Below are positions 6,766-60,408 of a stretch of 64,000 nucleotides of DNA, one piece after another; the first letter of the stretch is position 1, and each line of letters begins with the position of its first letter. The stretch is from Planctomycetota bacterium (GTDB taxonomy: Bacteria; Planctomycetota; UBA8108; SXIK01), in assembly GCA_965223265.1 (NCBI GenBank), contig OZ244999.1, positions 4,128,001-4,192,000 on the forward strand, read 5' to 3'. Below the pieces are notes generated by a model. The model worked only from the letters and a program-made list of their open reading frames with translations. It did not search any database and was not told the origin of the DNA. The translations under genes and the position numbers were made by a program.

Positions 6766-8121
6766 TCAGAACTTCAACTCTGCCTGCAACCAGTAACGCT
6801 GAATATCGCCGCCAGCGAGTACCGACTCGCCTTCAAACACGGCGAGCTTGGCAAGTACGGCAAGATTCTTCGTAATCGCTTTGCGCAGCGCTGCATCAAA
6901 TTCGACACCGAAATCTCGGCTCCTGTCTTCAGAGAAGAACATGTGAAAAACCGCCTGGAACTTCATGTCCCAGGGAAGCGGCGCTCTGACGTACGCGTAG
7001 AGATCTTCCAGTCCGTCGGGAGGCGTGACCAAAAACTTGTCGGCCCAACCGTTGAACTTGTGCAGCGTGGCCAGTGGGGTACTGAAGGACGCGGCGCCCC
7101 CATCGCTGCTCAGCACCTCGTAGCCAACGCCAAACGTGCCAACGCCTTTGACTCCGACGTTCCCTTCGAGAAGAAGATAGTGAGCCTTGTAGTCGTTCGG
7201 ATTGTCCCCCGCGTCGACCTGATAGGCGTAGGACAGTATGTAGCCGAAGCTCAGTTTCTCCTCTTGAAACTTCTGCGTTCCGTTCAGGCGGAGACCGACA
7301 GTGTTCGAAGAGTTCACGTCAGAATTGGGAAGGTCGATCAAGTAGCCAAAGCCAGTCAACGTCCCTACCGGGAGGCCGGAGTAGGACGCGCGGATCAAAT
7401 GCGAGTCTGATTTGAAATCGCGACCGGCGTCAGGCCCAAAGATCCGGTTCACTTCGTCAATGTACCCATAGTAAAGCGACAGATCTTCGACCCAATCAGA
7501 TTGGATCGTGAGGGCGTCATAGGTCTGTTCATTCTGGCGCCACCCGACGTTGCCGACGAACCTGGCGTCGTCGAGAATGATGCGTTGCCGTCCAATCTTT
7601 CCGGTGAAGAAGTCGTGATCGTAGCGAATAAAGGCACGGTTTAGCTCCGTGTTCTCCGGGTCAGCGATCACAGTCTTTCCGGGTTCACCGTTGAGACCCG
7701 CGGCGTTGTAGAGGTCCTCGTCCGCCGAACGCGTATCTTCGAACTCCAAGAAGCCCGAGAATCCATAGAACGGTTTCGTCCCGTATCCGAGACGAAGCCG
7801 TTCCGTGTACGCTTGTGAAGTGTCGAGTCCTTCTTGTTCAGCGATCTCCACACGAGCTCGGAGGTCGAAACTCAGCTTTCCATTGATGATGGAATCCATA
7901 AATGAGTGCCAGACGCTCGCCTCTTCGCCACCAGAAGCGGGCCCCGCCACCTCTCCCGGTGCCGTTTCTTGAGGTGCTTGCCCTTGCAGCGAAGCGGCTT
8001 CCACACGCGGTGGCACGCTAGCTGCCTGGTCGCTGGGTTCAGCAACCACCGGACCGAGCGCCCAGAAAAGAAGGACTAAGGAAACAATCTGAAAGATTGG
8101 GTTGGAAATCGTCTTTTTCAT
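6766..8121 (-). CDS. Outer-membrane beta-barrel, alginate-export (AlgE-like) porin family
   Basis: Signal peptide; GRQRIILDDARFVGNVGWRQNEQTYDA and TPLATLHKFNGWAD motifs; C-terminal ...LQAELKF. Confidence 0.8.
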   Translation of the reverse strand: MKKTISNPIFQIVSLVLLFWALGPVVAEPSDQAASVPPRVEAASLQGQAPQETAPGEVAGPASGGEEASVWHSFMDSIINGKLSFDLRARVEIAEQEGLDTSQAYTERLRLGYGTKPFYGFSGFLEFEDTRSADEDLYNAAGLNGEPGKTVIADPENTELNRAFIRYDHDFFTGKIGRQRIILDDARFVGNVGWRQNEQTYDALTIQSDWVEDLSLYYGYIDEVNRIFGPDAGRDFKSDSHLIRASYSGLPVGTLTGFGYLIDLPNSDVNSSNTVGLRLNGTQKFQEEKLSFGYILSYAYQVDAGDNPNDYKAHYLLLEGNVGVKGVGTFGVGYEVLSSDGGAASFSTPLATLHKFNGWADKFLVTPPDGLEDLYAYVRAPLPWDMKFQAVFHMFFSEDRSRDFGVEFDAALRKAITKNLAVLAKLAVFEGESVLAGGDIQRYWLQAELKF

Positions 8122-45102: not shown

Positions 45103-45179
45103 CGGGGTGTGGCGCAGTTTGGTAGCGCGTCTGACTGGGGGTCAGAAGGTCGTAGGTTCAAGTCCTATCACCCCGACCA
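45103..45179 (+). tRNA. tRNA-Pro(GGG); likely island attachment site
   Basis: CGGGGTG/CACCCCG acceptor stem; TCTGA-CTGGGGG-TCAGA anticodon arm; GGTTCAAGTCC T arm; encoded CCA. Confidence 0.95.
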
Positions 45180-45284
45180 CTTTTAACTCCCGCCGAATCC
45201 CATAGTTGGGATACCTTCCCCGCCCTTCAGGGGGCGGGGAGGAGCGGCCTCCAAGTCTATACAAGTCTATACGGAGGTCGCCCC

Positions 45285-46505
45285 ATGGAGCGCAGGAGGG
45301 CGAGTCAACGGAATAAGAGCGCGAGGAAGCGGACACCGCGCTACTGCCGGCAAAAGAGGACGGGGCGGCCAGACCTCGCCTATGTCGAATTCGCCGGGTC
45401 GCGGTGCTACCTCGGTGAGTACGGCTCGAAGGAGAGCCGGGCCGAGTATCGCCGGCTGGTTGCTGAGTGGTCGGGAGCGAGTGGACGCGCGCCTGAACGT
45501 CTGAACGACCAGCTAACGGTCGTCGAGGTGATCGCAAGGTTTTGGGAGCACGCGCAGGTCTACTATCGACGAGCCGACGGCACGCCGACGAGCGAGGTGG
45601 CAAACTTCAAGACCGCGCTGCGGACGCTGAAGGAGCTCTATGGTCACACAAAGGCGGGTGACTTCGGACCGCGGTCACTGAAAGCGATTCGCTCGCACCT
45701 CGTCAAAAGGGGACTGGCACGCACGACCGTAAACGCCATGACAAAACGTATCCGATCGGTGTTCAAGTGGGCCGTCTCGGAGGAGTTGGTGCCGCCCTCG
45801 GTGCATCACGGCCTGCAGGCGGTCTCAGGTCTGAAGCGCGGACGTTCGGAGGCGCGCGAGACAAGCCGCGTTCTACCGGTGCCCGAGGAGTTCGTCGAGG
45901 CCGTCAGGCCATACGTCTCGAGGCAAGTGTGGACGCTGATTCAGCTGCAGAAGCTCTCCGGGGCGCGTTCGGGGGAAATTTTGGGGCTCCGGCCGCGTGA
46001 CATCGATACATCGGGAGAGGTCTGGAGCTACTCACCTCCGAAACACAAGACAGCTCACCACGATCATTCGCGGGAGCTCTTCTTCGGCCCCAAGGCGCAG
46101 GCTTTGCTCCGGCAGTGGATGGAGTCGCGTCCGCTCGCTGCGTCGCTCTTTTCGCCGGCGGACGCCGAGACCGAACGACGAGCGCAGCAGCACGCGGAGC
46201 GAAAGACGCCTCTTCGCTACGGCAATCGCCCAGGCACGAACCGGAAAGAGTCTCCAAGACGAACGCCGCGCGACTGCTACACCGTGGACAGCTACGGACG
46301 GGCTATTCGCCGCGCGTGTGAAAAAGCAGGGATTCCCCCATGGCATCCCCACCAGCTGCGCCACAATGCGGGCACGGAGATCCGAAAGCAGTTCGGTATC
46401 GAGACGACACGGATCGTCCTCGGACACCAGTCCGTGGTCGTCTCCGAGCTCTACGCCGAGCGCGACCGAGCGATCGCTATCGACGTGATGGGGAAGTTGG
46501 GGTAG
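45285..46505 (+). CDS. Tyrosine integrase 1
   Basis: GGAGG RBS; N-terminal arm-binding-like region; GARSGE, KHKT, HQLRH, LGH and ELYA catalytic motifs. Confidence 0.93.
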   Translation: MERRRASQRNKSARKRTPRYCRQKRTGRPDLAYVEFAGSRCYLGEYGSKESRAEYRRLVAEWSGASGRAPERLNDQLTVVEVIARFWEHAQVYYRRADGTPTSEVANFKTALRTLKELYGHTKAGDFGPRSLKAIRSHLVKRGLARTTVNAMTKRIRSVFKWAVSEELVPPSVHHGLQAVSGLKRGRSEARETSRVLPVPEEFVEAVRPYVSRQVWTLIQLQKLSGARSGEILGLRPRDIDTSGEVWSYSPPKHKTAHHDHSRELFFGPKAQALLRQWMESRPLAASLFSPADAETERRAQQHAERKTPLRYGNRPGTNRKESPRRTPRDCYTVDSYGRAIRRACEKAGIPPWHPHQLRHNAGTEIRKQFGIETTRIVLGHQSVVVSELYAERDRAIAIDVMGKLG

Positions 46506-46545
46506 AGGGGTAAAGCAATGAAGCAATAGAGCAGCGCGGAGTCGC

Positions 46546-46591
46546 CTCGACAAGCTGGGGGTCACTGGTTCAAGTCCAGTAACGCCCACCA
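46546..46591 (+). other. 3' half of a tRNA (Val GAC-like); att core
   Basis: CTCGACAAGCTGGGGGTCACTGGTTCAAGTCCAGTAACGCCCACCA gives anticodon loop, T arm, acceptor 3' strand and CCA; no matching 5' half upstream. Confidence 0.8.
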
Positions 46592-46697
46592 TTTTAAACC
46601 TCGCTGAATCCTTGTGTTAGGGATACCTGCTCGGTAAGAGCAGCGCGACCGTAGCCTGAAACAGACGTATCCGCGGATACGCTTTCAGGAGGTCAGA

Positions 46698-47921
46698 GTG
46701 CCCGAAAACACAGGAAGCAGTCCGAGAAACGCGCGGCGCCGCCGCATGGCGCCGCGCTATCGGCGGCAGCGACACAGCTTGCGGGCGGACCGCGCCTTCG
46801 TCGAGCTCTCCGGGCAACGAATCTACCTCGGCGAGTTCGGCTCCGAAGGCAGCTGGGAGATGTATCACCGCGTCGTGGCGGAGTGGGCTGCGAGTGGTCG
46901 ACGACCGAGAGAGGGGACGACGGACATCACCGTGAACGAGATCATCGTTCAATTCTCCCTCTACGCCGATTCGTACTACCGACGCGCTGACGGATCCCCC
47001 ACCGGCGAGTTCGACAACTTCAAGCAAGCCATGCGGCCGCTGCGGCGGCTTTATGGACGAACGCCGGCAGCAGAGTTCGGCCCGATGGCGCTGAAGGCGG
47101 TGCGGCAAACTCTCATCGACGACGGTCTTGCGAGAACCACGGTGAATGCTTCGACACGGCGGCTGCGTCAAGTCTTCAAGTGGGCAGTGTCGGAGGAGCT
47201 TTTGCCGGCAGACGTGCTCCACGCCTTGCAATCAGTTCCGCCGCTCAAGCGCGGCAGGACGGAAGCGCGCGAGCCCAATCCGATACGGCCAGTACCCCGC
47301 CAGGACGTTGAGGCGGTGAGGCCACATGTGTCGCGGCAGGTGTGGACGCTGATCCAAGTCCAACTCCTCACGGGGGCGCGCAGCGGCGAGCTCTTGCCGA
47401 TGCGGGCGGTCGATCTGGACACAACCGGGAGTGTGTGGGTGTACAAGCCGCAGTCGCACAAGAACGACTATCGCGACCAGGAGCGCCAGATCTATCTAGG
47501 GCCGCGTGCGCAGGATCTGATCCGAGGTTTCCTTGTGAATCGTTCGCTCACCGCACCGCTCTTTTCACCCAGGGAAGCTGAGGCAGAGAGATCCATAACG
47601 AGACACGCCGATCGTAGGACGCCGCCCGGCCGCGGCAACATGCCCGGATCCCACCTCAGCTCCGAAGCAAGAAGGAGATCGCCCGGCGAGATGTACGATA
47701 CGCGCAGCTACGCACGAGCGATTCGTCGCGCTTGCGAGCAAGCTATGATTGCGGTGTGGAGCCCGCACCGTCTTAGGCACACCCGTGCCACGGAGATCCG
47801 CCGCGAGTATGGCCTCGAGGTCTCGAGGGTGATCTGTGGCCACAGGTCCACAGCGGCAACGGAGATCTACGCGGAGGTCGACCACCAGCGAGCGATCGAG
47901 CTGATGGGGAAGATAGGTTGA
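46698..47921 (+). CDS. Tyrosine integrase 2, paralog of integrase 1
   Basis: AGGAGG RBS with GTG start; GARSGE, SHKN, HRLRH, CGH and EIYA; colinear with integrase 1, both ending MGK(L/I)G. Confidence 0.93.
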   Translation: MPENTGSSPRNARRRRMAPRYRRQRHSLRADRAFVELSGQRIYLGEFGSEGSWEMYHRVVAEWAASGRRPREGTTDITVNEIIVQFSLYADSYYRRADGSPTGEFDNFKQAMRPLRRLYGRTPAAEFGPMALKAVRQTLIDDGLARTTVNASTRRLRQVFKWAVSEELLPADVLHALQSVPPLKRGRTEAREPNPIRPVPRQDVEAVRPHVSRQVWTLIQVQLLTGARSGELLPMRAVDLDTTGSVWVYKPQSHKNDYRDQERQIYLGPRAQDLIRGFLVNRSLTAPLFSPREAEAERSITRHADRRTPPGRGNMPGSHLSSEARRRSPGEMYDTRSYARAIRRACEQAMIAVWSPHRLRHTRATEIRREYGLEVSRVICGHRSTAATEIYAEVDHQRAIELMGKIG

Positions 47922-48272
47922 CGGGAGGGACACACTCTACAGCACATATAGTCAAAACTGTGGCGAACGTCGGACAAACTGGGAACCAAGTCGTCGTCGC
48001 GAGTCCAACGTTCGGAAAACGCGTCAGAGAGCGCCTTGGTCCTTTCTTCAACTAAAAATTGACAACCATTCTGTCGCCATTAAGCTCGAAGTATCGGAGT
48101 CGAGCATTCCTCCCGAAACGCCAGACGACGTTTCGTGGAGATCTCAATCTGGCAGGCGGGACTGTGGAGTACGGGTTCAGTTGACACGCTGCTACTCACC
48201 TGAGTCAGCGGTGACTGCGAGAGGCCGAGTCTTCGTCTCTCGGGTCGAACGTATGTCTTGGAGGGCAAATCT

Positions 48273-48468
48273 GTGAAGATGGTTCGAGACGTCTGCGTTC
48301 CCACGAATGTGTTTGTCGGTGTCTTTGCGATGTCCTTGTTCACATCCGTCGCAAACGGACAGAACAACATCTACGAGTCGGACTACGTGATCAAGCCGCA
48401 GCCGGATCTGCGCGCAGAGTTCCGGCTCAGCGGTGATCCGGAGGAGATCGCCAGGGCGCGCCTGCGCG
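48273..48468 (+). pseudogene. M36 protease gene, fragment 1 (signal peptide and start of propeptide)
   Basis: GGAGGG RBS; hydrophobic signal ending VANG; runs into the RIT left end. Confidence 0.7.
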
Positions 48469-48616
48469 GCAACACATGGGGAGTTCGGAGTTATGTGGAG
48501 TAGCGGAGTGAAGTCGTTGCTTTACAACACGTTCCAGTTCTCGCTCTCCCCATAAACCGGTAGCGTCGGTCTCCTCAGCACCCGCGGTGGGTGCCCCTCA
48601 AATCGGGAGATCGACC

Positions 48617-49876
48617 ATGATCGAAAAAGCTGAATCGTTCCCAGGCAGATCGTCACTCAGCGGCCTCGTCGCCGCTGCTCTTCGCCACCTCGAAGGTCTC
48701 GGCTACAGCCGACGAACTGTCGGGTACTATCGGAATTCGTGGAACAAGCTTCTCGAGTTCGCTCGAGAGTCGAAGCGGCGCGCGTTCTCGTCCGAACTCG
48801 TCTGTCGGTTCTTGGCTCACCACGGGATCAGCTCCGACGCTGATCAGGGGAAGCTACGCTGGCGTGAGGTCGAGCTGCTCAAGGCGCTGCGGATCCTCAC
48901 GGAGTTCGCCGAAGGCGGCAGCTTTCGGCCGTACCGCAAGCGGCTTCCCGAGCCGGTCTTCGCCAAGACGATCGCGGCCGAGCTACTGGCCTACGAGGCC
49001 TTCTGCCGTGAGCACCTCGGACATCGCCCCTGCACCGTCGCGCAGCGCCGAAGAGTGGTCGTCCAGTTCTTTCAGTTCCTCAACCCTCGAGGCATCTCCG
49101 CCTTGCGAGGACTGAGGACGCGCGACTTCTGCGATTTTCTCGACTCTCTCACGCAGTTGAGTCCTCCGTCGCTCGCCGCCGTATCAGGAGCGCTCAAGTC
49201 CTTTGTCCGCTACCTGTGCATGCGTGGGATCGTCGAACCGAAGGTGGCGGATGAATGGGTTCCCATCCGCTTCGCGAAGGAGAGTCGGCTTCCGTCCGTC
49301 TGGCCGGCAAGCGCGGTAAAGGAACTCCTCGCCGCTGTGGATCGTAGCACCACACAGGGCAAACGAGATTACGCCATCCTTCTCCTCGCTTGCCGCTTCG
49401 GCCTTCGAGCCAGCGACATTCGGACGTTGCGTCTCGACGACATCCGTTGGTCGAACGGTCGCATTGACCTTCGTCAGTCGAAGACAGGTCAGCCGTTGAC
49501 GCTCCCCCTCGAGGACGACGTCGCCGACGCACTCATCGATTACCTCCAACACGGCCGGCCGGCGACGAGCTATCGCCAGGTGTTTCTGAAGACCCGTGCT
49601 CCGGTGGCACCTCTCGGGGAGCGAAACAATCTCGTCACCATCGTGTCTTCTCACCTCAGCGGCCTGAAGACGCCTCTGCCTGCGGAGACCCGACGCGGCC
49701 TCCATGCTCTTCGTCACACTCTAGCCACACGTCTCCTCCGGGCTGGCGAACCGCTCGAGACGATTGCGGCGATCCTCGGACACACCTCGGTCGAGTCGAC
49801 CAGGCTCTATACGAGTCTCGACCTGGAAGCTCTGCATTGCGTCGCTCTCGACCCCGAGGAGGTGCTCCATGGGTAG
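48617..49876 (+). CDS. ritA: RIT tyrosine recombinase A
   Basis: RDYAILLL..GLRASDI, QSKT, GLHALRH, ILGH and TRLY. Confidence 0.88.
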   Translation: MIEKAESFPGRSSLSGLVAAALRHLEGLGYSRRTVGYYRNSWNKLLEFARESKRRAFSSELVCRFLAHHGISSDADQGKLRWREVELLKALRILTEFAEGGSFRPYRKRLPEPVFAKTIAAELLAYEAFCREHLGHRPCTVAQRRRVVVQFFQFLNPRGISALRGLRTRDFCDFLDSLTQLSPPSLAAVSGALKSFVRYLCMRGIVEPKVADEWVPIRFAKESRLPSVWPASAVKELLAAVDRSTTQGKRDYAILLLACRFGLRASDIRTLRLDDIRWSNGRIDLRQSKTGQPLTLPLEDDVADALIDYLQHGRPATSYRQVFLKTRAPVAPLGERNNLVTIVSSHLSGLKTPLPAETRRGLHALRHTLATRLLRAGEPLETIAAILGHTSVESTRLYTSLDLEALHCVALDPEEVLHG

Positions 49877-50849
49877 CGAACAGTCAGCGTTTCGCAGTCC
49901 CGTGCGAGATCTGATGGTGAAGTTCCTCGAGGAGAAGCGCGGCTGTGGATACCGCTATGAGAGGGAGGAGTACCTTCTGCGAGCGTTGGACAGCTTCCTC
50001 GTTGCTCGAGGGCTTCAACGCCGGGAGCTGCCGAGAGTCCTCGTACAGGACTGGACCGCCGCGCGCGCCGATGAACGTCCCAGGACGCAGCGCATGCGGC
50101 TGACGATCGTTCGTCAACTGGCGATCTTCCTCTGTCGGCAAGGCTGCTCGGCCTACGTTACGCCCCTGAATCCAAGGCGCGGTACACGTCGTGAATTCAC
50201 GGCGCGCATCTTCAGCCGGGAGGAAATCGCAAAGATCCTTCAGGCAGCTGACGACCTCGCCCCCTGTCGATGGTCGCCTCTCTATCATCTCGTGATCCCG
50301 GAACTCTTCCGCGTGCTCTACGGCTGCGGTCTTCGCCGAGGAGAGGCTCTTCGCTTGACAGTCGGAGACGTCGATCTCGTGGACGGAGTCCTTCGAATTC
50401 GCGAAGGCAAGTTTCGCAAGGACCGCCTTGTTCCCATCGCTCCCGGCTTGACTGAGCGGCTTCGTAGGTACGCCGAAGCACTCGACCCCCGCGAGCCTGG
50501 ACAGCCGTTCTTCCCGTCCCCGCGCGGCGGCGCGTATTCCTCCGGGCGCGTGTACACGATTTTCCGCAAGCTCTTGGGAGCCGCTGGCATTCCACACCAC
50601 GGTCGCGGACGCGGCCCTCGTCTCCACGAGATTCGCCATTCCTTTGCCGTACATCGGCTCGAGAACTGGTATGCGGAGGGTGTGGATTTGAACGCGAAGC
50701 TGCCGCTGCTCTCGTCGTACATGGGCCACCGCTGCATGCACGGTACCCAGGTCTACCTCCAGATGACCGAGAGCCTGTTCACCAACGTCACGGAACGGCT
50801 CGAAGCCGTCTGCGGTCATGCCATTCCGAGCGGGAGCAGAACCTCATGA
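49869..50849 (+). CDS. ritB: RIT tyrosine recombinase B
   Basis: GCGLRRGEAL, GKFRKDRLVP, PRLHEIRHSFAV, LSSYMGH and TQVY; overlaps A and C. Confidence 0.88.
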   Translation: MGSEQSAFRSPVRDLMVKFLEEKRGCGYRYEREEYLLRALDSFLVARGLQRRELPRVLVQDWTAARADERPRTQRMRLTIVRQLAIFLCRQGCSAYVTPLNPRRGTRREFTARIFSREEIAKILQAADDLAPCRWSPLYHLVIPELFRVLYGCGLRRGEALRLTVGDVDLVDGVLRIREGKFRKDRLVPIAPGLTERLRRYAEALDPREPGQPFFPSPRGGAYSSGRVYTIFRKLLGAAGIPHHGRGRGPRLHEIRHSFAVHRLENWYAEGVDLNAKLPLLSSYMGHRCMHGTQVYLQMTESLFTNVTERLEAVCGHAIPSGSRTS

Positions 50850-51865
50850 CGATCGCGAAACCCACCGACTTCGCCTGTCGACTCACTTCTTTCCTGACCG
50901 AGTACCTCCCATCCCAGCGAGGTCTCAGTCCGAACACGATCAAGAGCTACCGCGATGCGTTCGTGTTGCTGCTGCGCTACTGCCGTGAGGTCTGCGAGAT
51001 GCGCATCGAGCGCCTGTCGCTGGAAGCGATCGACGCGTCTCTCATCGTGAAGTTTCTCGGGCATCTCGAGAAGGAGCGCGGCTCTTCAACCCGAACTCGA
51101 AACCATCGCCTCGCCGCATTCCACTCTTTCTTCAAGTACGTCCAAGTCGAGGAGCCGGATCGGATTCAACACTGCCAACGCATTCTCGCGATCCCGCTTC
51201 GGCGCATAGCGCAGACTGAACCCACCTACCTGTCAGTCGAAGAACTGGCCGCGATCCTGAGACAACCAGACTCAACGACGCCTCAGGGACGCCGGGACGC
51301 TCTCATGTTGAGTCTGCTTTACGACACAGGAGCTCGCGTGCAGGAGTTGATCGATCTCTCGATCGCGGACCTTCGTCTCGCCTCCCCTCCGCAGGTGCGC
51401 TTGACTGGAAAGGGGCGAAAGATCCGCGTCGTCCCGCTCATGAAAGGAACGGCTGCCAACCTCGGCGAGTACGTCAAGGAGCACGCTCTCGATCGTCCCG
51501 AACAGGCGAACGAACCGCTCTTCGTGAACCGGGCGGGTAACCGTCTCTCCCGATGGGGAATACGACATCTTCTGTCCAAGTACAGCGAGGCCGCTCGAGT
51601 CGAGTGCCCGACGCTACCGCAGAAGATCACTCCTCATACCTTACGCCACACGAAGGCGATGCACCTCTTGCAGAGCGGCAACCCCGCCGTCGTAATCCGC
51701 GACTTCCTCGGTCATTCGGACATCCAGAGCACCCAGATCTACGCGAAGGCCGACCTGGACATGAAGCGGCGCGCCCTCGAGAAGGCCAATCAGCTTCCGG
51801 AGAGCAAGAAGGACCGATCGTGGCAACGCGATCCGGACCTTCTCACGTGGCTCGGATCGCTGTAG
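50846..51865 (+). CDS. ritC: RIT tyrosine recombinase C
   Basis: S.NTIKSYRD, YDTGARVQE, GKGRK, TPHTLRH.KAMHLL, FLGH and TQIYA. Confidence 0.88.
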   Translation: MTIAKPTDFACRLTSFLTEYLPSQRGLSPNTIKSYRDAFVLLLRYCREVCEMRIERLSLEAIDASLIVKFLGHLEKERGSSTRTRNHRLAAFHSFFKYVQVEEPDRIQHCQRILAIPLRRIAQTEPTYLSVEELAAILRQPDSTTPQGRRDALMLSLLYDTGARVQELIDLSIADLRLASPPQVRLTGKGRKIRVVPLMKGTAANLGEYVKEHALDRPEQANEPLFVNRAGNRLSRWGIRHLLSKYSEAARVECPTLPQKITPHTLRHTKAMHLLQSGNPAVVIRDFLGHSDIQSTQIYAKADLDMKRRALEKANQLPESKKDRSWQRDPDLLTWLGSL

Positions 51866-51986
51866 ACGCGCGGCCGATTTATGGAGAGTCCCAACGCGCC
51901 GAAGCGCCTCCGGTCGAGACAGGCGTCCGCTACTCCACATAACTCCGAACTCCCCATGTGATGAGTGATGTGGAGCTCCACATCAC

Positions 51987-52669
51987 CGCACAAGGAGCAG
52001 CTACGGGTGGTAGATTCAGACATCGACGACCTCGAAGTCGTCCGCAGCTACCGCGATGAGCACAATGGAATCACCCATGTGTACTTTCGCCAAACGGTGC
52101 AGGGGATCGAGGTGCTCGACGGCACGGCTGCCGCCCACATCCGAGGCGTCCGCGACGTCGTCGCCATCAGCTCGCACGTTGTCCCGCGCGCTCGGGAGCG
52201 GGTGAACACGTTCGAACCCACGCTGTCGCAGGAGGACGCACTCTGGATCTGTACCGTAGACTGCGATCTTGGAAACGCGCCAGCCAGCCCGAAGGTAACG
52301 GAGGAGGCAGACGATGCCAGCCTCAGAAAAACTTTCGACCTACCTGCGATCGCCCGAGGTCCGGTCCCCGTGCAGCTCAAGTTCGCTCCGCTGGGCGAAG
52401 AGCTCAGGCTGTGCTGGAGCGTGAAGATCTCTCGGCGCGACGGCGCCGATTCCTTCGAGAGGCTTTACGATGCGGTAGACGGCGAGGAGCTCAGTTACAG
52501 GAGTTTCGTCGCGCATGCCACGCCGGAATTCAAGGTGTTTCCGCTGGCGGACTATGGCAATCCGACGATGCCGCCGGTGGAGAGTCCGGCGCATGGGAGT
52601 CAAACGCGCGTAATAGATGGATCCGACCCGACCTTCGTTCTTCCTAGCACTATTCCAACGCCCAGCCCA
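51987..52669 (+). pseudogene. M36 protease gene, fragment 2 (FTP/PepSY-like propeptide and start of the mature domain)
   Basis: DIDDL.V..Y.D..NGITHVYFRQTVQGIEV; LCWSV; YDAVDGE.L; FKVFP...ESP. Confidence 0.8.
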
Positions 52670-54151
52670 CATGCGTGATCGGTTAGCCGTAAGCTCCATC
52701 GTAGTCATCGCTTACGACTCGAGCGATTCGTGCGTATAGAAAAAGAGGCCAAAATCTCGGACACTTCGTGACTCACCAAAGAAACGGAGTGAAGAGATCA
52801 TGGCCACAAGGAAGTGTATCGAACTACGATCCTGTCTCAAGAGCCTCTTTCCCGACAAGTTGATCCGCGATGAGTCTCGAGCGAGTGGTTTTGTGCTCCG
52901 GGAGCGAAAGATCAGGGCGGTTCCGTTCTTTTGGACATTGGTCCTGGGCTTTGGGGTTGGATCGGAGCGGACGATCTCTGCGCTGCGTCGAGCCTACGAA
53001 CGCTCGACGTCGTCGACCGTTGTTCCGTCCTCGTTCTACGATCGTTTCGACGCCAGTCTTGTGCGCTTTCTGAAAGCTGCGGTGAAGCGATCGTTGGCAA
53101 CCTTTCAGGCATCGTGGACTGAAATCGAGGAGCGCGTCGGAAAGTTTACGGACTTGATCATCGTTGACTCCACAGTGATGAAGCTTCACGAAAAGCTCAG
53201 AGGATCGTTCCCAGGGTGCCGAACGAACTCAGCGCCGGCTGCGGCGAAACTTCATGCAGTCCTCAGTGTGCGCGGCAAAGGAGGCTCGACGGTCGCTCTC
53301 ACTTCGGAGCGAAGTGCGGACCTGCGAAAACTTCGCACAGGTCCGTGGGTTCGAGACCGCCTTCTCCTCTTCGATCTCGGCTACTTCAAGTGGCAGCTCT
53401 TCCATCGCATCAGGAAAAACGGTGGCTTCTTCCTGACTCGATTGAAGCAAAACGCCAACCCGACAATTACCAAAATCCATCGCAGTGTTCGCGGCAACTC
53501 GATCCCCCTCGTGGGGGAGAGACTTCAAGACGTCCTACCTCGATTGAAAAGAGAAACTCTCGACGTTGAGATCGAAGCCTCGTTTGCAACCCGCAAGCAC
53601 CGAGGCCGAGCGCGTCGCGCTCACGAGCGTTTTCGACTTGTCGCCATCCGCAACGAAGACGACGGCCAGTATCACCTCTACGTCACCAACGTCGAACACG
53701 ACGATCTCATCGCCGAGGAGATCGCCAACGTCTACCGCTATCGCTGGGAAATCGAACTCATCTTCAAGGAGCTAAAGTCCGGCTACCGAATGGACCAGCT
53801 GACGAGCCGGCGCCCCCACGTGGTGGAAGCGATGATCTACTGTGCAATTCTGACACTTGTCGTCAGCCGAGAGCTTCTACGCCACCTTGCCTCACGAGTC
53901 CGCAGCGGTGCCGAGCGAGTCGCTGCGGGGCGTTGGTGGAAGCTTCTGGCGAACTACGCTCAGGAGCTTCAACTCCTCGTCGTTCGACCACGCCGAGACG
54001 CTCACCTCGCCGCTGGACTCGTCGACACCTTCCTGCACGAAATTGTCGACCCTCATACTGACAGACGCCCACTCTTGAGTCAGGTGTTTCGTTGATGTGG
54101 CGCCGTAAGTTTCATCTCTACAGAGCTTTGCGCGTTATCCGATGCCGCATG
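52670..54151 (+). mobile_element. IS4-family insertion sequence, 1482 bp
   Basis: Imperfect inverted ends CATGCGTGATCGG / CCGATGCCGCATG; 10-bp target duplication GCCCAGCCCA at 52660-52669 and 54152-54161. Confidence 0.92.
52800..54095 (+). CDS. IS4-family DDE transposase
   Basis: IVDST, LFDLGY and YRYRWEIELIFKELK (YREK signature). Confidence 0.93.
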   Translation: MATRKCIELRSCLKSLFPDKLIRDESRASGFVLRERKIRAVPFFWTLVLGFGVGSERTISALRRAYERSTSSTVVPSSFYDRFDASLVRFLKAAVKRSLATFQASWTEIEERVGKFTDLIIVDSTVMKLHEKLRGSFPGCRTNSAPAAAKLHAVLSVRGKGGSTVALTSERSADLRKLRTGPWVRDRLLLFDLGYFKWQLFHRIRKNGGFFLTRLKQNANPTITKIHRSVRGNSIPLVGERLQDVLPRLKRETLDVEIEASFATRKHRGRARRAHERFRLVAIRNEDDGQYHLYVTNVEHDDLIAEEIANVYRYRWEIELIFKELKSGYRMDQLTSRRPHVVEAMIYCAILTLVVSRELLRHLASRVRSGAERVAAGRWWKLLANYAQELQLLVVRPRRDAHLAAGLVDTFLHEIVDPHTDRRPLLSQVFR

Positions 54152-54161
54152 GCCCAGCCCA

Positions 54162-56337
54162 TGGGTATACGACCTGGGGGGCGAAGCGTGCACGACAGAG
54201 GGCAATAACATCAAGGCCTTCGCTGTTGACAATACTTCAGAGTACCAGCCAACAACGAGCAACTGCCTATTCGTTTTCGAAGAACTCACACTCCAGAATC
54301 TCAGTGACCCAACAGACCCGGATGGTTTTGCTTCTGATCCTTCGCTCTATCTCGACGCCACCATCGCAAATGCCTTTTACAACACCAATGTCCTGCACGA
54401 CATCTTATATCGATACGGGTTCAATGAAGCAGCTGGAAACTGGCAAAACGACAACTTCAGCCGGGGTGGATCTCCGGGAGATCCCTTACACGTACAATAC
54501 ACTCCGGATATCGCATCCAGCAATTTCTTTTCGTCCTCTCAAGATGGTCTAATATCGACCCTCGATCTTGGCATCAATGCAATCATATCAATCGGTCGTT
54601 CAACGATCCCCCTTCCCCCAGATGCAGTCAGCCCCATCGCGGCTACCATAGCCGACTTTAGTCAAGATCAAGACGACAAACTCGATCTTGTGATCGCAAA
54701 TCATCTCTCTGGAAATGTAACTCTCTTTCTCAATGACGGAAACGGGGGGTTCATTCCCGAGCCGAGTTATTCCACCTTCGGAGTGTCTCCAACCGACATT
54801 GTCGCTGGGGTTCTCGACAGTGACGTCTACGTTGATCTCGCGGTAACGCATGCAACCTCCAACTCCGTCACAATTCTCCTAAACGACGGAAACTCCCCGC
54901 CTGGATTCTCCGCGACGGTCTATGTCCTTCCGGGATCTGACTATCCTGTTTCACTCGCTACGATTGACCTGGATGGAGACAGCGACCTTGATTTGATCGT
55001 CGCAAACCGCGATTCTCAAAACGTGACGCTACTGGAAAATGTCGGGTCGTCGTTTTCGATCCATGCGCCCATAGATATACCGGGGAGCCCAACGAGCGTT
55101 TGCGCAGCAGACGTTGACGGAGATGCGGACAACGACGGCATTTTGGCAATCCAAGACGTCGTCGGAAGCAGCGTCTGCGGCGCGACGCCGGCAGACGCTG
55201 TCGTTGTACTCGAGAATTCTGGGGGTTGGATTTTTTCTGTGGGAAGTGTAACGTGCATCGAGCCCGATAGAGACCCCAGTTCAGTAAGTGTCGCTAATTT
55301 TGACGGATACGAAGACGGAGACGAAGACGTCGACATAGTTGTCGCGCAAAGCGGAACTGAATTCGTCGACATATTCGACAACGACGGGGACGGCCAATTT
55401 TCTCTTCTCAGCTCAGTCTTCCTAGGGGGAACGGCGGTTGCAGCCACTTCGGTCGCCCACACGCCGACCGGAGCCCATGAGGAACTTAATCTAAGCTCTG
55501 AGACTAGACCCACCGACGAGCTGCCGGATGTGAGCGCTGTTTCATCAGCCCCAGGAACGTTGGCCAGCCGTATTAACCGAAGCACTAGTAAGAAGCGCGG
55601 ATTATTTGCTAGAGTTACTCAAGAAAGCCTTAACGCCCAAAGTGATTTTGAGTTGACAGATCTGGGAACAATTCACGACGTAGTTGCGGGGAACCTGGCG
55701 GGGGGAGCAGACCCCGATGTTGTCGTTATTTCGCAGCAAGGGTGCGAAGTTTTTACAAATGACGGTATTGGTTCGTTTACTGCTCCCGGGATTCATTCCT
55801 TCAGAAGCGGAGCTTTGGATCTCTCAGTCATTGCACATGAGCTCAGCCACGGCGTAGTTTCCCGCCTGACCGGAGGAATATTCAGGCCCGGAGGCGGAGC
55901 TTCTCAAGCGTCTGGCCTAGTCGAAGGCTGGGCAGACGCCATGAGCCTCCAATTGACGGGGCCACGCGACGGCGACAGCCCTCGAGGTATGTTCACGTTT
56001 TGGAGCGGCCATTTGCCTTCGGGATCCGGAGTTCGCATCCTCCCGTACAGCAACGATCAATCTGTAAACCTGTGGACGTTCGGAGATCATGAACTCCTAA
56101 TTAGCGAGGACCACGCTGGGCCGTTCGGCACTGGGCATGCAGCTGGAGAGATCTGGGCAGTCACGCTTTGGGATCTCTACTGGCTTCTCATCGGTCTCTA
56201 CGGCCAGAGCGGCGATCTATACGCGGCGTTTGGCTCAACGCTCGGCGGAGAAAACGTGTCACTTAAGCTGGCCATCGACGCACTAAAGTTTGCGCCCGGA
56301 AACCCCGCTACTTATGTGACACATCGGAATGCCTACC
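54162..56337 (+). pseudogene. M36 protease gene, fragment 3 (catalytic domain with inserted FG-GAP repeats)
   Basis: Open frame from 54162; FYNTNVLHDILYRYGFNEAAGNWQNDN..RGG; D.DGD.D.D repeats; HELSH...EGWAD; GEIW..LWD. Confidence 0.88.
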
Positions 56338-56578
56338 TGCTGAGTCCCACAAACTCTGGCTCGTGAGCAGCGACGAGTCTCAGATTCACTGACCCGGAAA
56401 CGCCCCGGCATACCCCGCCGAACCGACCGTCCGATCATACCCCGCCTACCCCGCGCCCCCCGTTCGACGCTGCGCCCTGGACCTTCGCTCGACTCCTCGC
56501 CTCACCTCGAGTAAAGAGGGGAGCGGAGAGACCGGTGTTGGTGCACTTCTCTCCGCAAGTCCCCGTACGGAGAGAGCG

Positions 56579-57247
56579 ATGCTACCCCATTTGGTCAACG
56601 CGATACAGAGCTATGGCGAAGCTGTTCGCCGCCGTGAGATCCAGCCGACCTGTAACCGCTGCCCGAATTGCAGCGGGGAGCCAGATCGGTTCCGCTACCG
56701 CGGTCACCGAGAGCGCGTGTTCCTCGTTATCGTCAGGCGTCTGGTCGAACCTGTCCTGTCGCTTCTGAGTCGCTGGAAGTGTCCTCTGTGTAAGCGCTCC
56801 TTCACGCTCTACCCGCCCTTCGCGCTGCCGGGGAAACGCTACGTTCGCGACTGCGTTTTCGATCACGCTCGGCGCTACCTCCAGATCGACGAGCTTTCGT
56901 ATCGCGAAGCCGTCAAGGTCGAACACATGCCCGTCTTCCACGAGGGTGACGACAGGGGAGCGATCGACGAGCGCAGCCTCGCGCACTCAACACTTCATCG
57001 TTGGCTTTCGTTCTTTCGCTCTCTCAACGCCACGCTCCTGGAGGCTCTCCGCCTCATCCGAGAGCGCTCGGCGAGGTCCGACATCTTCCGCAAGGTCTTC
57101 GCCGTCCGTCCAGCCAAGTACCGAAGCGAATCACGGCGGGACACTCTCGTCGCGGCACTTCGAGCTCTCTCGATCGACCAGGTGTTCCGTTCCCTCTTCG
57201 GCCGATCGATCTTCCCCGACTTGGCAACCTCCGCAGCCTGGGCGTGA
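56579..57247 (+). CDS. Transposon accessory zinc-ribbon/HTH protein (DUF6431-like)
   Basis: CPNC...RWKCPLCKRSFTLYP.F..P.KRY; C-terminal STLHRW. Confidence 0.7.
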   Translation: MLPHLVNAIQSYGEAVRRREIQPTCNRCPNCSGEPDRFRYRGHRERVFLVIVRRLVEPVLSLLSRWKCPLCKRSFTLYPPFALPGKRYVRDCVFDHARRYLQIDELSYREAVKVEHMPVFHEGDDRGAIDERSLAHSTLHRWLSFFRSLNATLLEALRLIRERSARSDIFRKVFAVRPAKYRSESRRDTLVAALRALSIDQVFRSLFGRSIFPDLATSAAWA

Positions 57248-57287
57248 GCGAGAATCACGCCTCGCTCGCCCCATGCGAGGTGTGATC

Positions 57288-58850
57288 ATGAAAGCGAAAG
57301 ATCTCGATTGGGCTATCTTCTGGGCGGCTCTTCTCCAGCCCGTCGTCATCGGCGAGGTGCCGGAGGAGGAAGCCGCGCGATTTCTCCGCGAGCTCGCCAA
57401 AGAAGAGCGCATCTTTCCCGACGGATCGCGACGCAAGCCGGCTCTTTCGACCCTGAGGCGGAAGCTTCGCATCTATCGCGAGGAGGGCTTCGAGGGTCTT
57501 GCCCGCAGGCCGCGAAGCGATCGCGGGAAACCGCGTGCCCACGGCAAAGAGCTCGTCGAGAAAGCCGTCGAGCTGAAGCGTGATCAGCCACTGCGCTCCC
57601 ACTTCGCCATCAACAAGTTCCTCCAGGCTCAGCACGGAAAGACCATTCCGCGTTCGACCCTCTTCCGCTACCTCAAGATCGCCGGCGCGACGCGGCTGAA
57701 GCTCGGTGTCGAGAGGAGGAAAGTCCGGAAACGCTGGACTCGTGACTCCACCCATGCCCTCTGGGTCGGCGACTTCGCCGATGGACCCTACGTGCTGCAC
57801 GACGGCGAAGTCGTCCCCACCTTCCTCTGTGTTCTCATCGACTGCTACAGCCGCTCGCTCGTCGAGGGGCGCTACTACCTTCGGCAAAATCTCGAGGTCT
57901 TGATCGACTGCTTGCTGCGGGCGTGGGCCAAGCACGGTGCTTCGGACGAGCTCTATGTCGATCAGGCGAAGGTCTATATCTCCAAAGCGCTCAAGGCGGC
58001 ATGCCTTGCCGTTGTCACCCGGCTCATCCATCGCGGCAAGGGCGATCCGCCACCGGGTGGTCTCGTCGAACGACTCATCGAGACGATACAGGGCCAGTTC
58101 GAGGCCGAGGTCAGAGCCGGCGAGATCCTCACTCTCGACTCGCTCAACGGAAGCTTCGATTCCTGGAAGACCGTGGCCTACCACCGCCAGGTCAACACCG
58201 AGACCGGCGAAACACCCGAGGCACGAGCCGAGGCCGGCCTCAAACGGCCTATCCGACACGTCGACATTCAGCGCGTCACCGAGTTCTTCATGTGCCGCGA
58301 GACGCGGCGCGTTCACCCGGACTTCTCCGACGTCCAGCTCGATCGCCGCTTCTATCGCGTCGACAAGAGTCTGCGCGGTGACAAGGTCGAAGTCCGCTAC
58401 GATCCCTTCTCCGCGCCCGACACGGTTCTCATCTACTCCAGCAACGAAGAGTACCTCGGAAAGGGCGTCCTTCACGAGCGCGAAGAGGGCGAGGACGCCG
58501 GTGCTCCCGCCCCTCCCGCCAAAGCGAAGCACAACTATCTGGAGCTTCTTCGCCGTGAGCACGACGAGGAGCTCAAGAAGCGCGCCCAGGGGATCGACTA
58601 CCGTCGTGTCATCGCCTCTCGCCAGTGGCCCTTCACCGACTTCGCATGCCTTCTCGGCCGGCTCATGGGGCGCAAGGGCGCCCTCTCGAGCTTCACCGCC
58701 GAGGAGCTCGAGGAACTCAAGAAGTTCTACAACCGTACTCCCAGCCTCACCGAAGTCCTCTTGCTGAGGGCCTTCGAGAAGGCTCCGGAGAAATCCATTC
58801 CCTACATCGCCTACGAGCTTCAACGACTCGCAGGCAGAAAGGAGGACTGA
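57288..58850 (+). CDS. DDE integrase-type transposase with Mu-like C-terminal domain
   Basis: HTH (STLRRK..YREEG.EGL..PRSD.GK); LWVGD, IDCYSR, LYVDQ and G.VER; KVEVRYDP. Confidence 0.9.
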   Translation: MKAKDLDWAIFWAALLQPVVIGEVPEEEAARFLRELAKEERIFPDGSRRKPALSTLRRKLRIYREEGFEGLARRPRSDRGKPRAHGKELVEKAVELKRDQPLRSHFAINKFLQAQHGKTIPRSTLFRYLKIAGATRLKLGVERRKVRKRWTRDSTHALWVGDFADGPYVLHDGEVVPTFLCVLIDCYSRSLVEGRYYLRQNLEVLIDCLLRAWAKHGASDELYVDQAKVYISKALKAACLAVVTRLIHRGKGDPPPGGLVERLIETIQGQFEAEVRAGEILTLDSLNGSFDSWKTVAYHRQVNTETGETPEARAEAGLKRPIRHVDIQRVTEFFMCRETRRVHPDFSDVQLDRRFYRVDKSLRGDKVEVRYDPFSAPDTVLIYSSNEEYLGKGVLHEREEGEDAGAPAPPAKAKHNYLELLRREHDEELKKRAQGIDYRRVIASRQWPFTDFACLLGRLMGRKGALSSFTAEELEELKKFYNRTPSLTEVLLLRAFEKAPEKSIPYIAYELQRLAGRKED

Positions 58851-59641
58851 TGTTCACCACCCATTTCAAGATGACGACGCAGCCCTTTCTCGAGCGCGCG
58901 CCCGTCGAGCAGATTCTTTCCGACGAGCGCATCACCCAGGGACTCGCTCGACTGGAGTACCTCGCCAAGTCGGGCTCGATCGGCCTGGTGACCGGACTCA
59001 CCGGGGTGGGGAAGTCGTCTCTGGTGAAGCTCTTCGTGCGCTCGCTGAGCCGCAACCTCTACGACCCGATCTATCTCTCGCTGACCTACGTCGGGGCAAA
59101 CGGCATTCTGAAGCTCCTGGTTTCCAGCCTCGGCGAGCAGCCCCGCCGTGGCAAGGAGCGGCTCTTCCTCCAGATCCTGGATCGCGTCGGGGCGAACGAG
59201 CACACGACAATCCTCGTCATCGATGAAGCGCACCTGCTTCCTTCGGAGTCGCTCACCGATCTGAGACTTCTGGTCAGCTCCGGACTCGAGGACGGCCCGC
59301 CATTGAAGATCCTCCTCAGCGGACAAGAGACCCTGAGAAAGGAGCTTACCCGAGCGCGCCACGCCGATCTCACGCATCGGCTCAGCGTGCGCTACCACGT
59401 GCCGCCGCTCAGCAAGGAGCAGACGGTCGAGTACATCGACTTTCAGATGCGCGCAGCCGGCGCCTCGCAGAAAGTCTTCGAGCCTGAAGCGAAGTCGCTC
59501 ATCCACGACTACTCAAGCGGCGTGCCGCGGCGCATCAACAACATCGCCACCGCCTGCCTCATTCAGGCCGCGAGCAAGAACGTCCAGAAGATCTCCGAGG
59601 CGCTCGTCAACGACACCGCCCCCGAGTTCCATCTGCCCTGA
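58850..59641 (+). CDS. ExeA/TniB-like AAA+ ATPase (transposition helper)
   Basis: Walker A GLTGVGKS; Walker B LVIDEAH; LLSGQ; GVPRRIN; TGATG stop-start overlap with the transposase. Confidence 0.9.
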   Translation: MFTTHFKMTTQPFLERAPVEQILSDERITQGLARLEYLAKSGSIGLVTGLTGVGKSSLVKLFVRSLSRNLYDPIYLSLTYVGANGILKLLVSSLGEQPRRGKERLFLQILDRVGANEHTTILVIDEAHLLPSESLTDLRLLVSSGLEDGPPLKILLSGQETLRKELTRARHADLTHRLSVRYHVPPLSKEQTVEYIDFQMRAAGASQKVFEPEAKSLIHDYSSGVPRRINNIATACLIQAASKNVQKISEALVNDTAPEFHLP

Positions 59642-59660
59642 GAACGGAGACTGACGCGCC

Positions 59661-59954
59661 ATGTTCCACAAGACCCTGATGCCTCGAGTCAACGACTTCG
59701 CCGAGTATCCTGAGCTCGCCGTTTTGATGACCCTCGCGACGAACCTCGAGATCGCCCTGTTCGCTCTGAACGCCGCGTACCCCGATCTCGACTTCGACTA
59801 CACGCAACGCTCCTCCTACACCGAGCAAGACGCCTATCTCGCCGCCTTGGGCGCTCAGCTGCGAGCGCTCCAGATCGTCCTCGAAGAGTATCTCGAGAGC
59901 CTGCAACGAATCCGATATTTGAAGGCGCCGAGCGGTGGAGGTGGCGTCGCATGA
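59661..59954 (+). CDS. Small helical hypothetical protein of the transposon
   Basis: GGAG RBS; 97 aa; ATGA overlap with the next gene. Confidence 0.65.
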   Translation: MFHKTLMPRVNDFAEYPELAVLMTLATNLEIALFALNAAYPDLDFDYTQRSSYTEQDAYLAALGAQLRALQIVLEEYLESLQRIRYLKAPSGGGGVA

Positions 59955-60268
59955 CAGGACGATTCTCCGGCAAGCTCCTGCGGTCGTTGAGAAACGATAT
60001 ACCGATCGCGTGGCTCCTCGATCTGCTCGGCGTCCCCGCGAAAATCTCCGAGGGCTACGTGCGCTTCCTCTGTCCGCGGTGTCGCGAATTCAACACCGCG
60101 ACGAAGGCGTCCACCAACCTCGCGCGTTGCTTTCGCTGCGAGACGAACTTCAACCCGATCGACCTGGTCATGATCGTCAAGCGGCTGAATTTCGTCGACG
60201 CCGTCGAGTTCCTCGCCGAGCTCCGCGATCGTCGCGGTGACGCTCGCGCCACGCCTCGCCCTTCGTGA
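59951..60268 (+). CDS. Primase-type (CHC2-like) zinc-finger protein
   Basis: FLCPRC...NLARCFRCETNFNPIDLVM....NFVDAVEFL; followed by a hairpin at ~60274-60308. Confidence 0.8.
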   Translation: MTGRFSGKLLRSLRNDIPIAWLLDLLGVPAKISEGYVRFLCPRCREFNTATKASTNLARCFRCETNFNPIDLVMIVKRLNFVDAVEFLAELRDRRGDARATPRPS

Positions 60269-60408
60269 TTCCCCGGGTCGTCGTGCCGTCCGGGACACGA
60301 CGACCCGCGCCTTCTCGCCTCGCAAATCGCATCTCGCACCCGCGAATCAGCACCATGCCATTTAATCTGGGATTTCCGCGCCAGATACTGTGGGACTTAG
60401 CACCTACC

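Follow-up and report, generated by a model that had tools for sequence, protein, structure and literature searches.

A tRNA-Val half between two tyrosine integrase genes behind tRNA-Pro(GGG) in a planctomycete genome

Layout of the locus

The locus described here contains two tyrosine integrase genes, int1 and int2, that follow a tRNA-Pro(GGG) gene in a planctomycete genome and enclose the 3' half of a tRNA-Val(GAC) gene. It lies in a 64,000-nt stretch (hereafter the window) that corresponds to bases 4128001-4192000 of a single finished 9.18-Mb contig (OZ244999.1) with 61% G+C and a gene content of planctomycete type (PSCyt/PSD families, DUF1501, many sulfatases). Coordinates refer to the window unless they are given as genome positions. 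The only tRNA gene that ARAGORN detects in the window is tRNA-Pro(GGG) at 45103-45179 on the plus strand (66.4 bits with the Rfam tRNA model), and among the 60 tRNA genes of the genome it alone carries this anticodon. It occupies the position of the left attachment site (attL) of unit 1, which comprises a leader (arm 1, 45180-45284) and int1 (45285-46505, 406 aa). A spacer of 40 bp without tRNA sequence follows (46506-46545), and then the tRNA-Val(GAC) half (46546-46591), a second leader of 106 nt (arm 2, 46592-46697) and int2 (46698-47921, 407 aa), all on the plus strand. The two integrase genes are thus arranged head to tail in the same direction, 192 nt apart. The initial annotation had read the same order from the letters, including the start of the Val half in the anticodon loop, and ARAGORN, the coordinates and the comparison with the host tRNA gene given below agree with it.

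The first joint of this arrangement is also present in short-read data. A 1426-nt contig identical to 45150-46575 without a mismatch spans int1, the spacer and 30 nt of the Val half, and it occurs in all four public runs consulted (two samples of one study, probably the source of the assembly; only assembled contigs, which drop rare variants, were used). The mis-assembly between 46505 and 46546 that the initial annotation had considered is contradicted by this contig. No single short-read contig runs through the whole Val half into int2, a link provided by a 12-nt contig overlap and by the finished genome. Three copies of the half-tRNA in the genome cause the contigs to break at this point.

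The two integrases

Int1 and Int2 are 54% identical over 385 aa (E 9e-150). Both match the Pfam family Phage_integrase (PF00589) with 43.6 and 42.4 bits, respectively, against a cut-off of 27.1, while no NCBIfam model reaches its cut-off for either. The int2 frame starts with GTG and is preceded by AGGAGG. Residues R228, K255, H357, R360, H382 and Y391 (Int2 numbering), which we take to be the catalytic set of tyrosine recombinases, are invariant in Int1, Int2 and a third integrase of the genome, Int3. The description of the two proteins as paralogs that keep their catalytic residues therefore stands. The best relative of solved structure is XerA (5hxy, E 2.8e-5).

Five paralogs in this genome are 50-60% identical to one another in a star-like relationship and Int2 groups with a metagenome sequence, so int1 and int2 are not the products of a local duplication. 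One quick tree and one smaller tree of the N-terminal regions were computed. In the latter, Int2 pairs with a metagenome integrase located at tRNA-Pro(TGG) (support 81), Int5 groups weakly (support 53) with another such integrase, at tRNA-Ala(CGC), and Int3 groups with Int4 (support 89). A viral origin was considered and rejected, as no relative of the integrases was found in a viral contig collection.

The tRNA-Val half and the spacer

The segment 46546-46591 is identical at 46 of 46 positions to positions 32-77 of tRNA-Val(GAC), from the anticodon loop to the CCA end, and the initial annotation's assignment of this fragment to a host tRNA is upheld. The only tRNA-Val(GAC) gene of the genome is intact and lies on the minus strand at genome positions 2827461-2827537. 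The copy in the window lacks the 5' half and is inverted relative to this gene, from which it is 1.35 Mb distant. When the tRNA was compared with the whole genome by BLAST, three copies of the Val half were found. Given the perfect 5-bp anticodon stem of the gene (CCAGC/GCTGG), the loop (46546-46552 in the window copy) is TCGACAA, which places C at position 33, a position that is near-universally U in tRNAs. The 3' half of tRNA-Val(GAC) is 96-100% conserved in several related genomes.

Because the tRNA identity starts at position 32, within the range of 31-33 seen in the integrase family described below, the joint between spacer and Val half has the signature of an integrase-type crossover, and such a crossover, not breakage or mis-assembly, appears to have made it. 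The start in the anticodon loop, the intact family leader and the position of int2 directly behind indicate that the Val half is the cognate attachment (att) core of Int2, and unit 2 is a complete att-int module for tRNA-Val(GAC). The units of int2 and of a fifth integrase gene, int5, share a 75-nt identity that ends within the conserved stem-1 motif of the leader, and over its first 30 nt arm 2 matches the arm of the int5 unit (genome positions 2789268-2789297) with 100% identity.

Other explanations of the joint were examined. The idea that gene conversion turned an original Pro half into the Val half was rejected, since there is no anchoring homology to the left of the core and the whole 46 nt are of Val type. 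The 10-mer CTGGGGGTCA is common to tRNA-Pro(GGG) (45135-45144, anticodon loop and stem) and to the Val half (46555-46564, stem and variable loop) with an offset of nine tRNA positions. Action of Int1 or Int2 on this 10-mer was rejected because the Val identity reaches 9 nt further to the left and tRNA-Pro is not a hybrid. The shared 10-mer leaves the joint unexplained but might have a role where related integrases cross-recognise tRNA targets.

The spacer has no word of 8 nt or more in common with arm 1. Its 11-mer AGAGCAGCGCG (46528-46538) recurs in arm 2 at 46637-46647, where it forms the 3' half of stem 2 and the box behind it. An 11-mer of arm 2 turns up in a random 40-nt stretch of this genome with a frequency of 0.0013 and in a 160-nt stretch with one of 0.0066; against shuffled sequences the match has p 0.002. 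Counting both strands together (18.4 Mb), the consensus box GAGCAGNGCGG is present 78 times. At 46538-46546, where the end of the spacer meets the first base of the Val half, the sequence is GGAGTCGCC, which recurs around the ribosome-binding site of this genome's tRNA-Arg unit. These word matches weakly favour the spacer being an attP-like left flank, that is, the P-side arm of Int2 (attP being the attachment site carried by an element). The proposal that the layout represents an unused attP thus fared unevenly: the start of the core, the intact leader and the 11-mer in the attP-like spacer speak for it, whereas the same layout is found at 15 related loci and twice more in this genome, so that the layout in itself is no proof.

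A structured leader between tRNA and integrase gene

Both arms contain a leader element that is conserved across the family (104 related loci) and that is a more robust new observation than the cassette itself. Its architecture consists of a TAA...GCCGAA stretch, a first covarying hairpin, the sequence TACC, a second covarying hairpin and a GCGGC box. Compensating changes in the stem of hairpin 1 include GAATCC/GGATAC, GAACGC/GCGTAC and GAATGC/GCATAC. In an alignment of 91 leaders, 86.7% of the cells are paired compared with 65.5% in shuffled alignments (none of 500 reached the observed value) and 31-47% when the partners are slid against each other. Changes on both sides were seen for 10 of 11 pairs. 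The many G-U pairs indicate that the strand in the sense of the integrase gene carries the structure. In arm 1, the GCGGC box is predicted to pair with the ribosome-binding site (predicted fold -50.9 kcal/mol, z -4.55).

A covariance model of the leader (R1) matches exactly five leaders in this genome, including arm 1 (44 bits) and arm 2 (45 bits). The remaining ones lie at genome positions 2789231-2789300, 3285630-3285711 and 6067735-6067816, and the four copies other than arm 2 score 38-49 bits. R1 also matches all five of five loci outside its building set, and Rfam holds no such leader family. The regulatory arms of int1 and int2 both appear to be intact. Over their first 30-36 nt, leaders of units at the same type of tRNA resemble one another (the Val units at 30 of 30 positions, and likewise the Pro and the Arg units), whereas the remainder groups like the integrase (int3 with int4) and not by tRNA. 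No terminator-like site was found on the plus strand from tRNA-Pro to the end of int2. The leader is a candidate cis-regulatory RNA that would couple int to the tRNA promoter, and int is probably read through from this promoter and throttled by the leader.

The integrase family in Planctomycetota

The integrases belong to an uncharacterised, little-studied family of tRNA-targeting tyrosine integrases of Planctomycetota. From public collections, 160 related loci were fetched that are 31-53% identical and derive without exception from Planctomycetota or metagenomes. A full tRNA gene lies just upstream on the same strand in 104 of them, the upstream DNA is too short in 29, and the other 27 lack a full tRNA. 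Fifteen of these 27 (15 of about 131 informative loci) carry a bare 3' half-tRNA; the Rfam tRNA model gave no match in nine loci tested among those without a full tRNA. Arg, Val, Pro, Ala, His, Lys, Asn, Gly, Met, Thr and other tRNAs serve as targets, and close relatives sit at different tRNAs. Members of the family combine an integrase related to Int1 and Int2 with a tRNA or half-tRNA 100-250 nt upstream and the two-hairpin leader in the interval, and both units of the present locus show this arrangement.

In displaced copies that can be compared with their tRNA, the identity always begins at tRNA position 31-33. Displaced or right-end (attR) copies at other loci comprise 44 nt from position 32 (L030), 48 nt from 31 (L039), 45 nt from 31 (L072) and 25 nt from 31 (L080), and those in this genome 48 nt from 31 for Pro(TGG) and 45 nt from 33 for Arg(CCG). 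Elements of the family carry DUF1580/HTH_17 proteins, presumably excisionase-like, in 4 of 23 scanned cases and a primase-helicase (DUF3987, DUF3854 with DUF5906, or D5_N) in 3 of 23, 1-4 kb behind int.

This genome contains five to six units of the family: tblastn revealed three paralogs besides int1 and int2, and the remnant of a sixth unit is visible in the sequence that follows the tRNA-Arg half. Int3 is encoded behind a 48-nt tRNA-Pro(TGG) half, 83 kb downstream of that tRNA. The truncated int4 follows a full tRNA-Arg(CCG), and a 45-nt Arg half is located 15 kb further on in front of the remnant of the sixth unit. Int5 is split by a transposon and sits 38 kb downstream of tRNA-Val with a 45-nt Val half in front of it; the intervening DNA belongs to a different element, which encodes an unrelated integrase and a DUF3854/DUF927 protein. 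The arrays at tRNA-Val, Pro(TGG) and Arg(CCG) each contain a fragment of the same tRNA gene, as tandem arrays do, and the succession of non-tRNA sequence, half-tRNA and int is present twice more in this genome as an ordinary product of such arrays.

Several further features of these elements were observed. The 38-kb element at tRNA-Val(GAC) (genome positions 2789343-2827460) has its unrelated tyrosine integrase at the far end (L011:9499-10707), uses the same 45-nt tRNA sublocation as the family studied, and encodes, besides the primase-like DUF3854/DUF927 protein, an RHS-repeat protein and an ECF sigma factor accompanied by a Ser/Thr kinase-WD40 pair. A second leader, nearly identical to that of int4, follows the displaced tRNA-Arg half at genome positions 3300951-3301290 (L015:17951-18290). 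Its stem 1 is interrupted by some 190 bp with inverted termini, similar to a miniature inverted-repeat transposable element, and only the first integrase codons follow. Units at tRNA-Val with the anticodon CAC (L116, L117, L118, L122 and L167) have an inverted copy of 18-20 nt of tRNA positions 40-59 at the start of the integrase gene, possibly an arm-type site or a partner in RNA pairing. At a further tRNA-Arg(CCG) locus (L181, G240:C3), 61 nt of the 3' end of an intact integrase gene (2547-2607) are repeated with 92% identity 4.5 kb downstream (7064-7124), left over from a second unit that points the same way. Two clusters of tRNA genes were also noted. Genome positions 5388119-5389466 hold nine tRNA genes (two each for Glu, Leu and Ser, and Arg, Gln and Trp) within 1.35 kb that duplicate isoacceptors encoded elsewhere and resemble the arrays of mobile elements, and at locus L090 of another genome a fragment of a family integrase is closely followed by 32 tRNA genes, of which a 2.8-kb run holds 27.

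Only one of the 160 loci (L030) has two integrases of the family, 5.4 kb apart with a half of the same tRNA-Asn in between, which is a normal array. Upstream of 23 loci with a half-tRNA or no tRNA, none of the 38 open reading frames (ORFs) scanned, of 55 found, encodes a tyrosine integrase. Among 250 other Planctomycetota genomes the family is present in 39, with at least two copies in 13 of these; the only pair within 10 kb is divergent, 774 nt apart, and has a tRNA-Asn half before one member. The four best-scoring integrases of this genome scan reach 521, 525, 519 and 516 bits, compared with about 790 bits for Int1 and Int2 against themselves. One of them comes from the same taxonomic family, and all four show the plain order of tRNA, leader and int.

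The region downstream of int2

The body of an island is missing. Whole-genome BLAST with the tRNAs Pro(GGG), Val(GAC), Pro(TGG) and Arg(CCG) found no 3' half of Pro(GGG) elsewhere, no fourth Val half and no Val repeat near the locus, and a low-stringency search of the 60 kb downstream gave only Pro(GGG) matches of 9-11 nt at the longest. In the 379 nt after int2, alignments with the Pro and Val cores are no better than shuffled sequences (p 0.67 and 0.50; genome control 0.61). The 336 nt from 47922 to 48257 contain neither a supported gene nor a significant core remnant according to ORF and alignment checks. A Pfam scan of 15 hand-chosen ORFs between 48080 and 63892 revealed no excisionase-like, primase, recombination directionality factor (RDF), transfer, replication or cargo gene behind int1 and int2; the scan found recombinases, transposases, a peptidase and repeat proteins only. 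The initial annotation had envisaged an island that chooses between two targets and bears distal Pro and Val att copies. No such copies lie near the locus, Pro(GGG) has none in the whole genome, no excisionase-like or primase gene was found, and a peptidase gene begins 337 nt after int2, all of which speaks against that view.

Arm-like words of 10-14 nt at 75196 and 75670 (window numbering) were considered as distal att sites; they lie within patatin and Mpo1-like genes, have no tRNA-like core and were judged to be chance matches. Cargo shared with other units was rejected, since tblastx with the pieces after int2 detected only a C-terminal domain that has 270 tblastn matches across the genome. 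Synteny could not place the right end of an island: the nearest genome compared (same family, different genus) has an identical, unoccupied tRNA-Pro, and the neighbouring genes there are scattered over the present genome. In the contigs of the four runs, ends that diverge after the 3' end of tRNA-Pro or tRNA-Val carry sequence absent from this genome, from other organisms in the samples. Two short "skip" joints occur among the contigs, with sides of 21-23 nt.

The peptidase gene extends from 48258 to 56366, perhaps to 61949, and encodes a large secreted metallopeptidase of the M36 (fungalysin) type with an FTP propeptide and FG-GAP repeats. Its G+C content is 47-57%, compared with 61% for the genome, and three transposable elements interrupt it. 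A probable start resembling a signal peptide lies at 48258-48469 on the plus strand, and further pieces lie at 51966-52665 and 54152-56337, as identified by Pfam and by arithmetic on the reading frame. The first insertion (48470-51965, plus strand) is a RIT-type element with three tyrosine recombinase genes in a row and 38-nt terminal inverted repeats, which are 97% identical. It is inserted in frame, to judge from coordinate arithmetic, by which the peptidase pieces on either side share a frame. Three copies of this element, including those at genome positions 2473658-2477151 and 3318733-3322246, are 100% identical. An insertion sequence of the IS4 family follows at 52666-54151 (plus strand, domain scan), and the third insertion is a 4065-bp transposon at 56338-60402 (plus strand) that encodes a DUF6431 protein, an rve/Mu-C transposase and an AAA_22 ATPase. 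Ten copies of this transposon occur in the genome at 99.9-100% identity and one of them splits int5 (genome positions 2784391-2788455), which indicates a recent burst of transposition.

Origin of the cassette

The locus is a real, unusual juxtaposition, most likely left by the fusion or shuffling of elements in a transposon-rich genome, and not a mobile island. The cassette is tentatively interpreted as the remnant of two fused or composite elements in which an attP-type site (P arm, Val core, P' arm and int2) has been preserved behind int1. To judge from the anatomy of the family, an element would carry a copy of its target tRNA from the anticodon loop to the CCA end. Crossover would take place at the 5' edge of the anticodon loop, and integration would rebuild the tRNA and place int directly behind it, where the gene would be read through from the tRNA promoter and throttled by the two hairpins and the ribosome-binding-site helix of the leader. 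Unit 1 is in this normal position at tRNA-Pro(GGG), and the attP-type site of Int2 would have come to lie behind int1 through the fusion of two elements or because both travelled as a composite. The remainder of the element and the right-hand att sites would have been lost later, and three transposable elements have since entered the region. Several observations weigh against this interpretation. The 11-mer shared by spacer and arm 2 was noticed post hoc, and although it is the sole 11-nt word in 72 comparisons of flanks with arms, two non-cognate comparisons reach 10 nt; among genuine P arms of relatives, no box recurs consistently. Integration of a composite at the Pro site would be expected to leave a Pro(GGG) half-tRNA at its end, and the genome has none. 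With attP, the chromosomal target site (attB) and an active Int2 in one cell, integrative recombination would be expected to have run already. Finally, a co-directional int-att-int cassette with two different tRNAs, which the initial annotation had proposed to look for in other genomes, was found in none of the 160 related loci or the 250 other Planctomycetota genomes; since no fetched relative is closer than about 50% identity to Int1 or Int2, this absence is weak evidence against a long-lived composite.

It is somewhat unlikely that the joint is instead a secondary-site scar, the alternative raised in the initial annotation. A Val-specific element of the family would have recombined, or Int2 would have acted on the chromosome itself, at a pseudo-site just behind int1 that is not part of a tRNA; the Val core, arm 2 and int2 carried in by the element would remain as a junction of attL type, with the right end of the element and the rest of unit 1 deleted later. 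Crossover at the left edge of the core would give exactly what is seen, a full match to the tRNA that begins at the joint with foreign sequence before it, and integration at secondary sites is established for other elements such as SGI1 (PMC2297512). The primary site at tRNA-Val is present and intact, however, the 10 nt to the left of the joint match the left half-site of tRNA-Val at only 3 of 10 positions in a hand comparison, and the 11-mer shared with arm 2 would have to be due to chance. The best local match to the Val core in the 379 nt after int2 does lie at the crossover end (GACAAACTGGG, 47972-47982), but this candidate for the right joint is not significant against shuffled sequences. 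An origin as a tandem array at tRNA-Val is unlikely. Here int1 and int2 would have been stacked with the Val half as an ordinary array joint, and a later crossover between leaders, with an element at tRNA-Pro(GGG) that is now int5, would have inverted about 1.35 Mb around the terminus and placed tRNA-Pro before int1. The same kind of joint exists in the arrays at tRNA-Val (38 kb, with the unrelated integrase), Pro(TGG) (83 kb) and Arg(CCG) (15 kb), the starts of the leaders group by tRNA type while their remainders and the integrases group otherwise, and the 75-nt identity of the int2 and int5 units ends within the stem-1 motif. Moreover, the two loci have opposite orientations, and the maximum of a clean GC skew (maximum 3.54 Mb, minimum 7.94 Mb) falls between them at distances of 0.72 and 0.63 Mb; an inversion between 2.8 and 4.17 Mb would be invisible in the skew because it is nearly symmetric, and synteny with the nearest genome compared is too scrambled to bear on it either way. 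On the other side, homologous recombination of the ordinary kind would need more sequence in common than the leaders offer there, neither the Pro(GGG) half predicted beyond the int5 element nor the further Val half predicted beyond int2 exists, and an extra deletion is needed to reduce unit 1 to int1 and 40 bp.

A working element with two modules, which integrates as a composite through Pro and keeps a live attP(Val)-int2 pair with which to re-target tRNA-Val or to invert or split the chromosome, was the main proposal of the initial annotation and is highly unlikely. In its favour, both integrases and leaders are intact, no terminator-like site separates tRNA-Pro from the end of int2, the Val core matches perfectly an intact, inverted attB placed nearly symmetrically about the terminus, and elements with several int/att pairs that rearrange chromosomes are established, as for ICE3 of Mesorhizobium (PMC5882170). 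Such an element should nevertheless have a right end and genes for an RDF, transfer, replication or cargo, none of which were recognised, and the absence of the cassette from the loci and genomes surveyed counts against it as well. A perfect core is no sign of use, since the other four half-tRNA copies at array joints in this genome are equally perfect. Mis-assembly at the repeated Val half is scarcely credible. A repeat of 45-75 nt that occurs three times and at which short-read contigs end could in principle mislead an assembler, but the contigs of all four runs join int1 and spacer to 30 nt of the half, a partner swap at the 75-nt repeat would still put a Val half behind int1, and the genome is a single finished contig.

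Two more far-reaching ideas are, taken together, quite unlikely to hold. The locus might be a live two-module unit that flips about 1.35 Mb nearly symmetrically through recombination of the Val core with tRNA-Val or with the int5-linked Val half, Int2 being expressed from the tRNA-Pro promoter. Alternatively, it might be an intermediate of a change of target in which the tRNA core and the first 30 or so nt of the leader are swapped at the conserved hairpin. In this view the covarying leader would be a new cis-regulatory RNA through which expression of the integrase is coupled to the promoter of a host tRNA.

If the Val module were live, it would represent a very compact integrated element that holds a second, unrecombined att-int pair, an arrangement on which the multipartite ICEs are built but here without cargo, and it would predict a switchable inversion on the megabase scale. 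The more secure value of the locus lies in the little-studied family to which it leads, in which close relatives at different tRNAs may reveal how integrases change their targets and in which a conserved covarying leader absent from Rfam lies between tRNA and int. If the joint is only a scar, it is a caution for island-finding software, as a half-tRNA beside an integrase need not belong to the nearest tRNA.

Comparison with known systems

The tRNA-integrating islands catalogued by Islander (PMC4383910) have a tyrosine integrase next to a tRNA gene, a 3' part of the tRNA carried on the element and an attP centred on the anticodon loop, and they form tandem arrays. The present locus shares with them the integrase adjacent to a tRNA, the 3' tRNA part carried along, an identity that starts in the anticodon loop and, in this genome, displaced half-tRNAs before older integrases (PMC4383910). 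It differs in that an Islander island, as the same text describes it, has a cognate displaced fragment in the same orientation, whereas Pro(GGG) has no second copy here; the Val half lies 1.35 Mb from its tRNA in the opposite orientation, which the orientation filter described there does not admit (PMC4383910). Members of a tandem array repeat the same tRNA end in that account, whereas here a Val half stands behind a tRNA-Pro unit (PMC4383910): the fragment before int2 derives from tRNA-Val and the full gene before int1 is tRNA-Pro. Two integrases with different tRNA cores are adjacent, and no element ends are present by which they could be assigned to one element.

SGI1, an integrative mobilisable element that exemplifies secondary-site and tandem integration, differs in that both junctions and the element itself are present, whereas here the left junction alone is recognisable (PMC2297512). 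The two are alike in that an att half borne by an element is joined to DNA that is not its primary target (PMC2297512). The tripartite ICE3 of Mesorhizobium possesses the integrases IntS, IntG and IntM with three sets of att sites, three RDFs, conjugation genes, a large cargo and experimentally shown recombination states (PMC5882170). The present locus, by comparison, has two integrases 192 nt apart without an RDF, transfer genes, cargo or a sign of an alternative state (PMC5882170). A likeness to ICE3 would lie in more than one pair of integrase and att site, in what may be an unrecombined attP for a second target, and in a distant attB at which recombination would rearrange the chromosome (PMC5882170).

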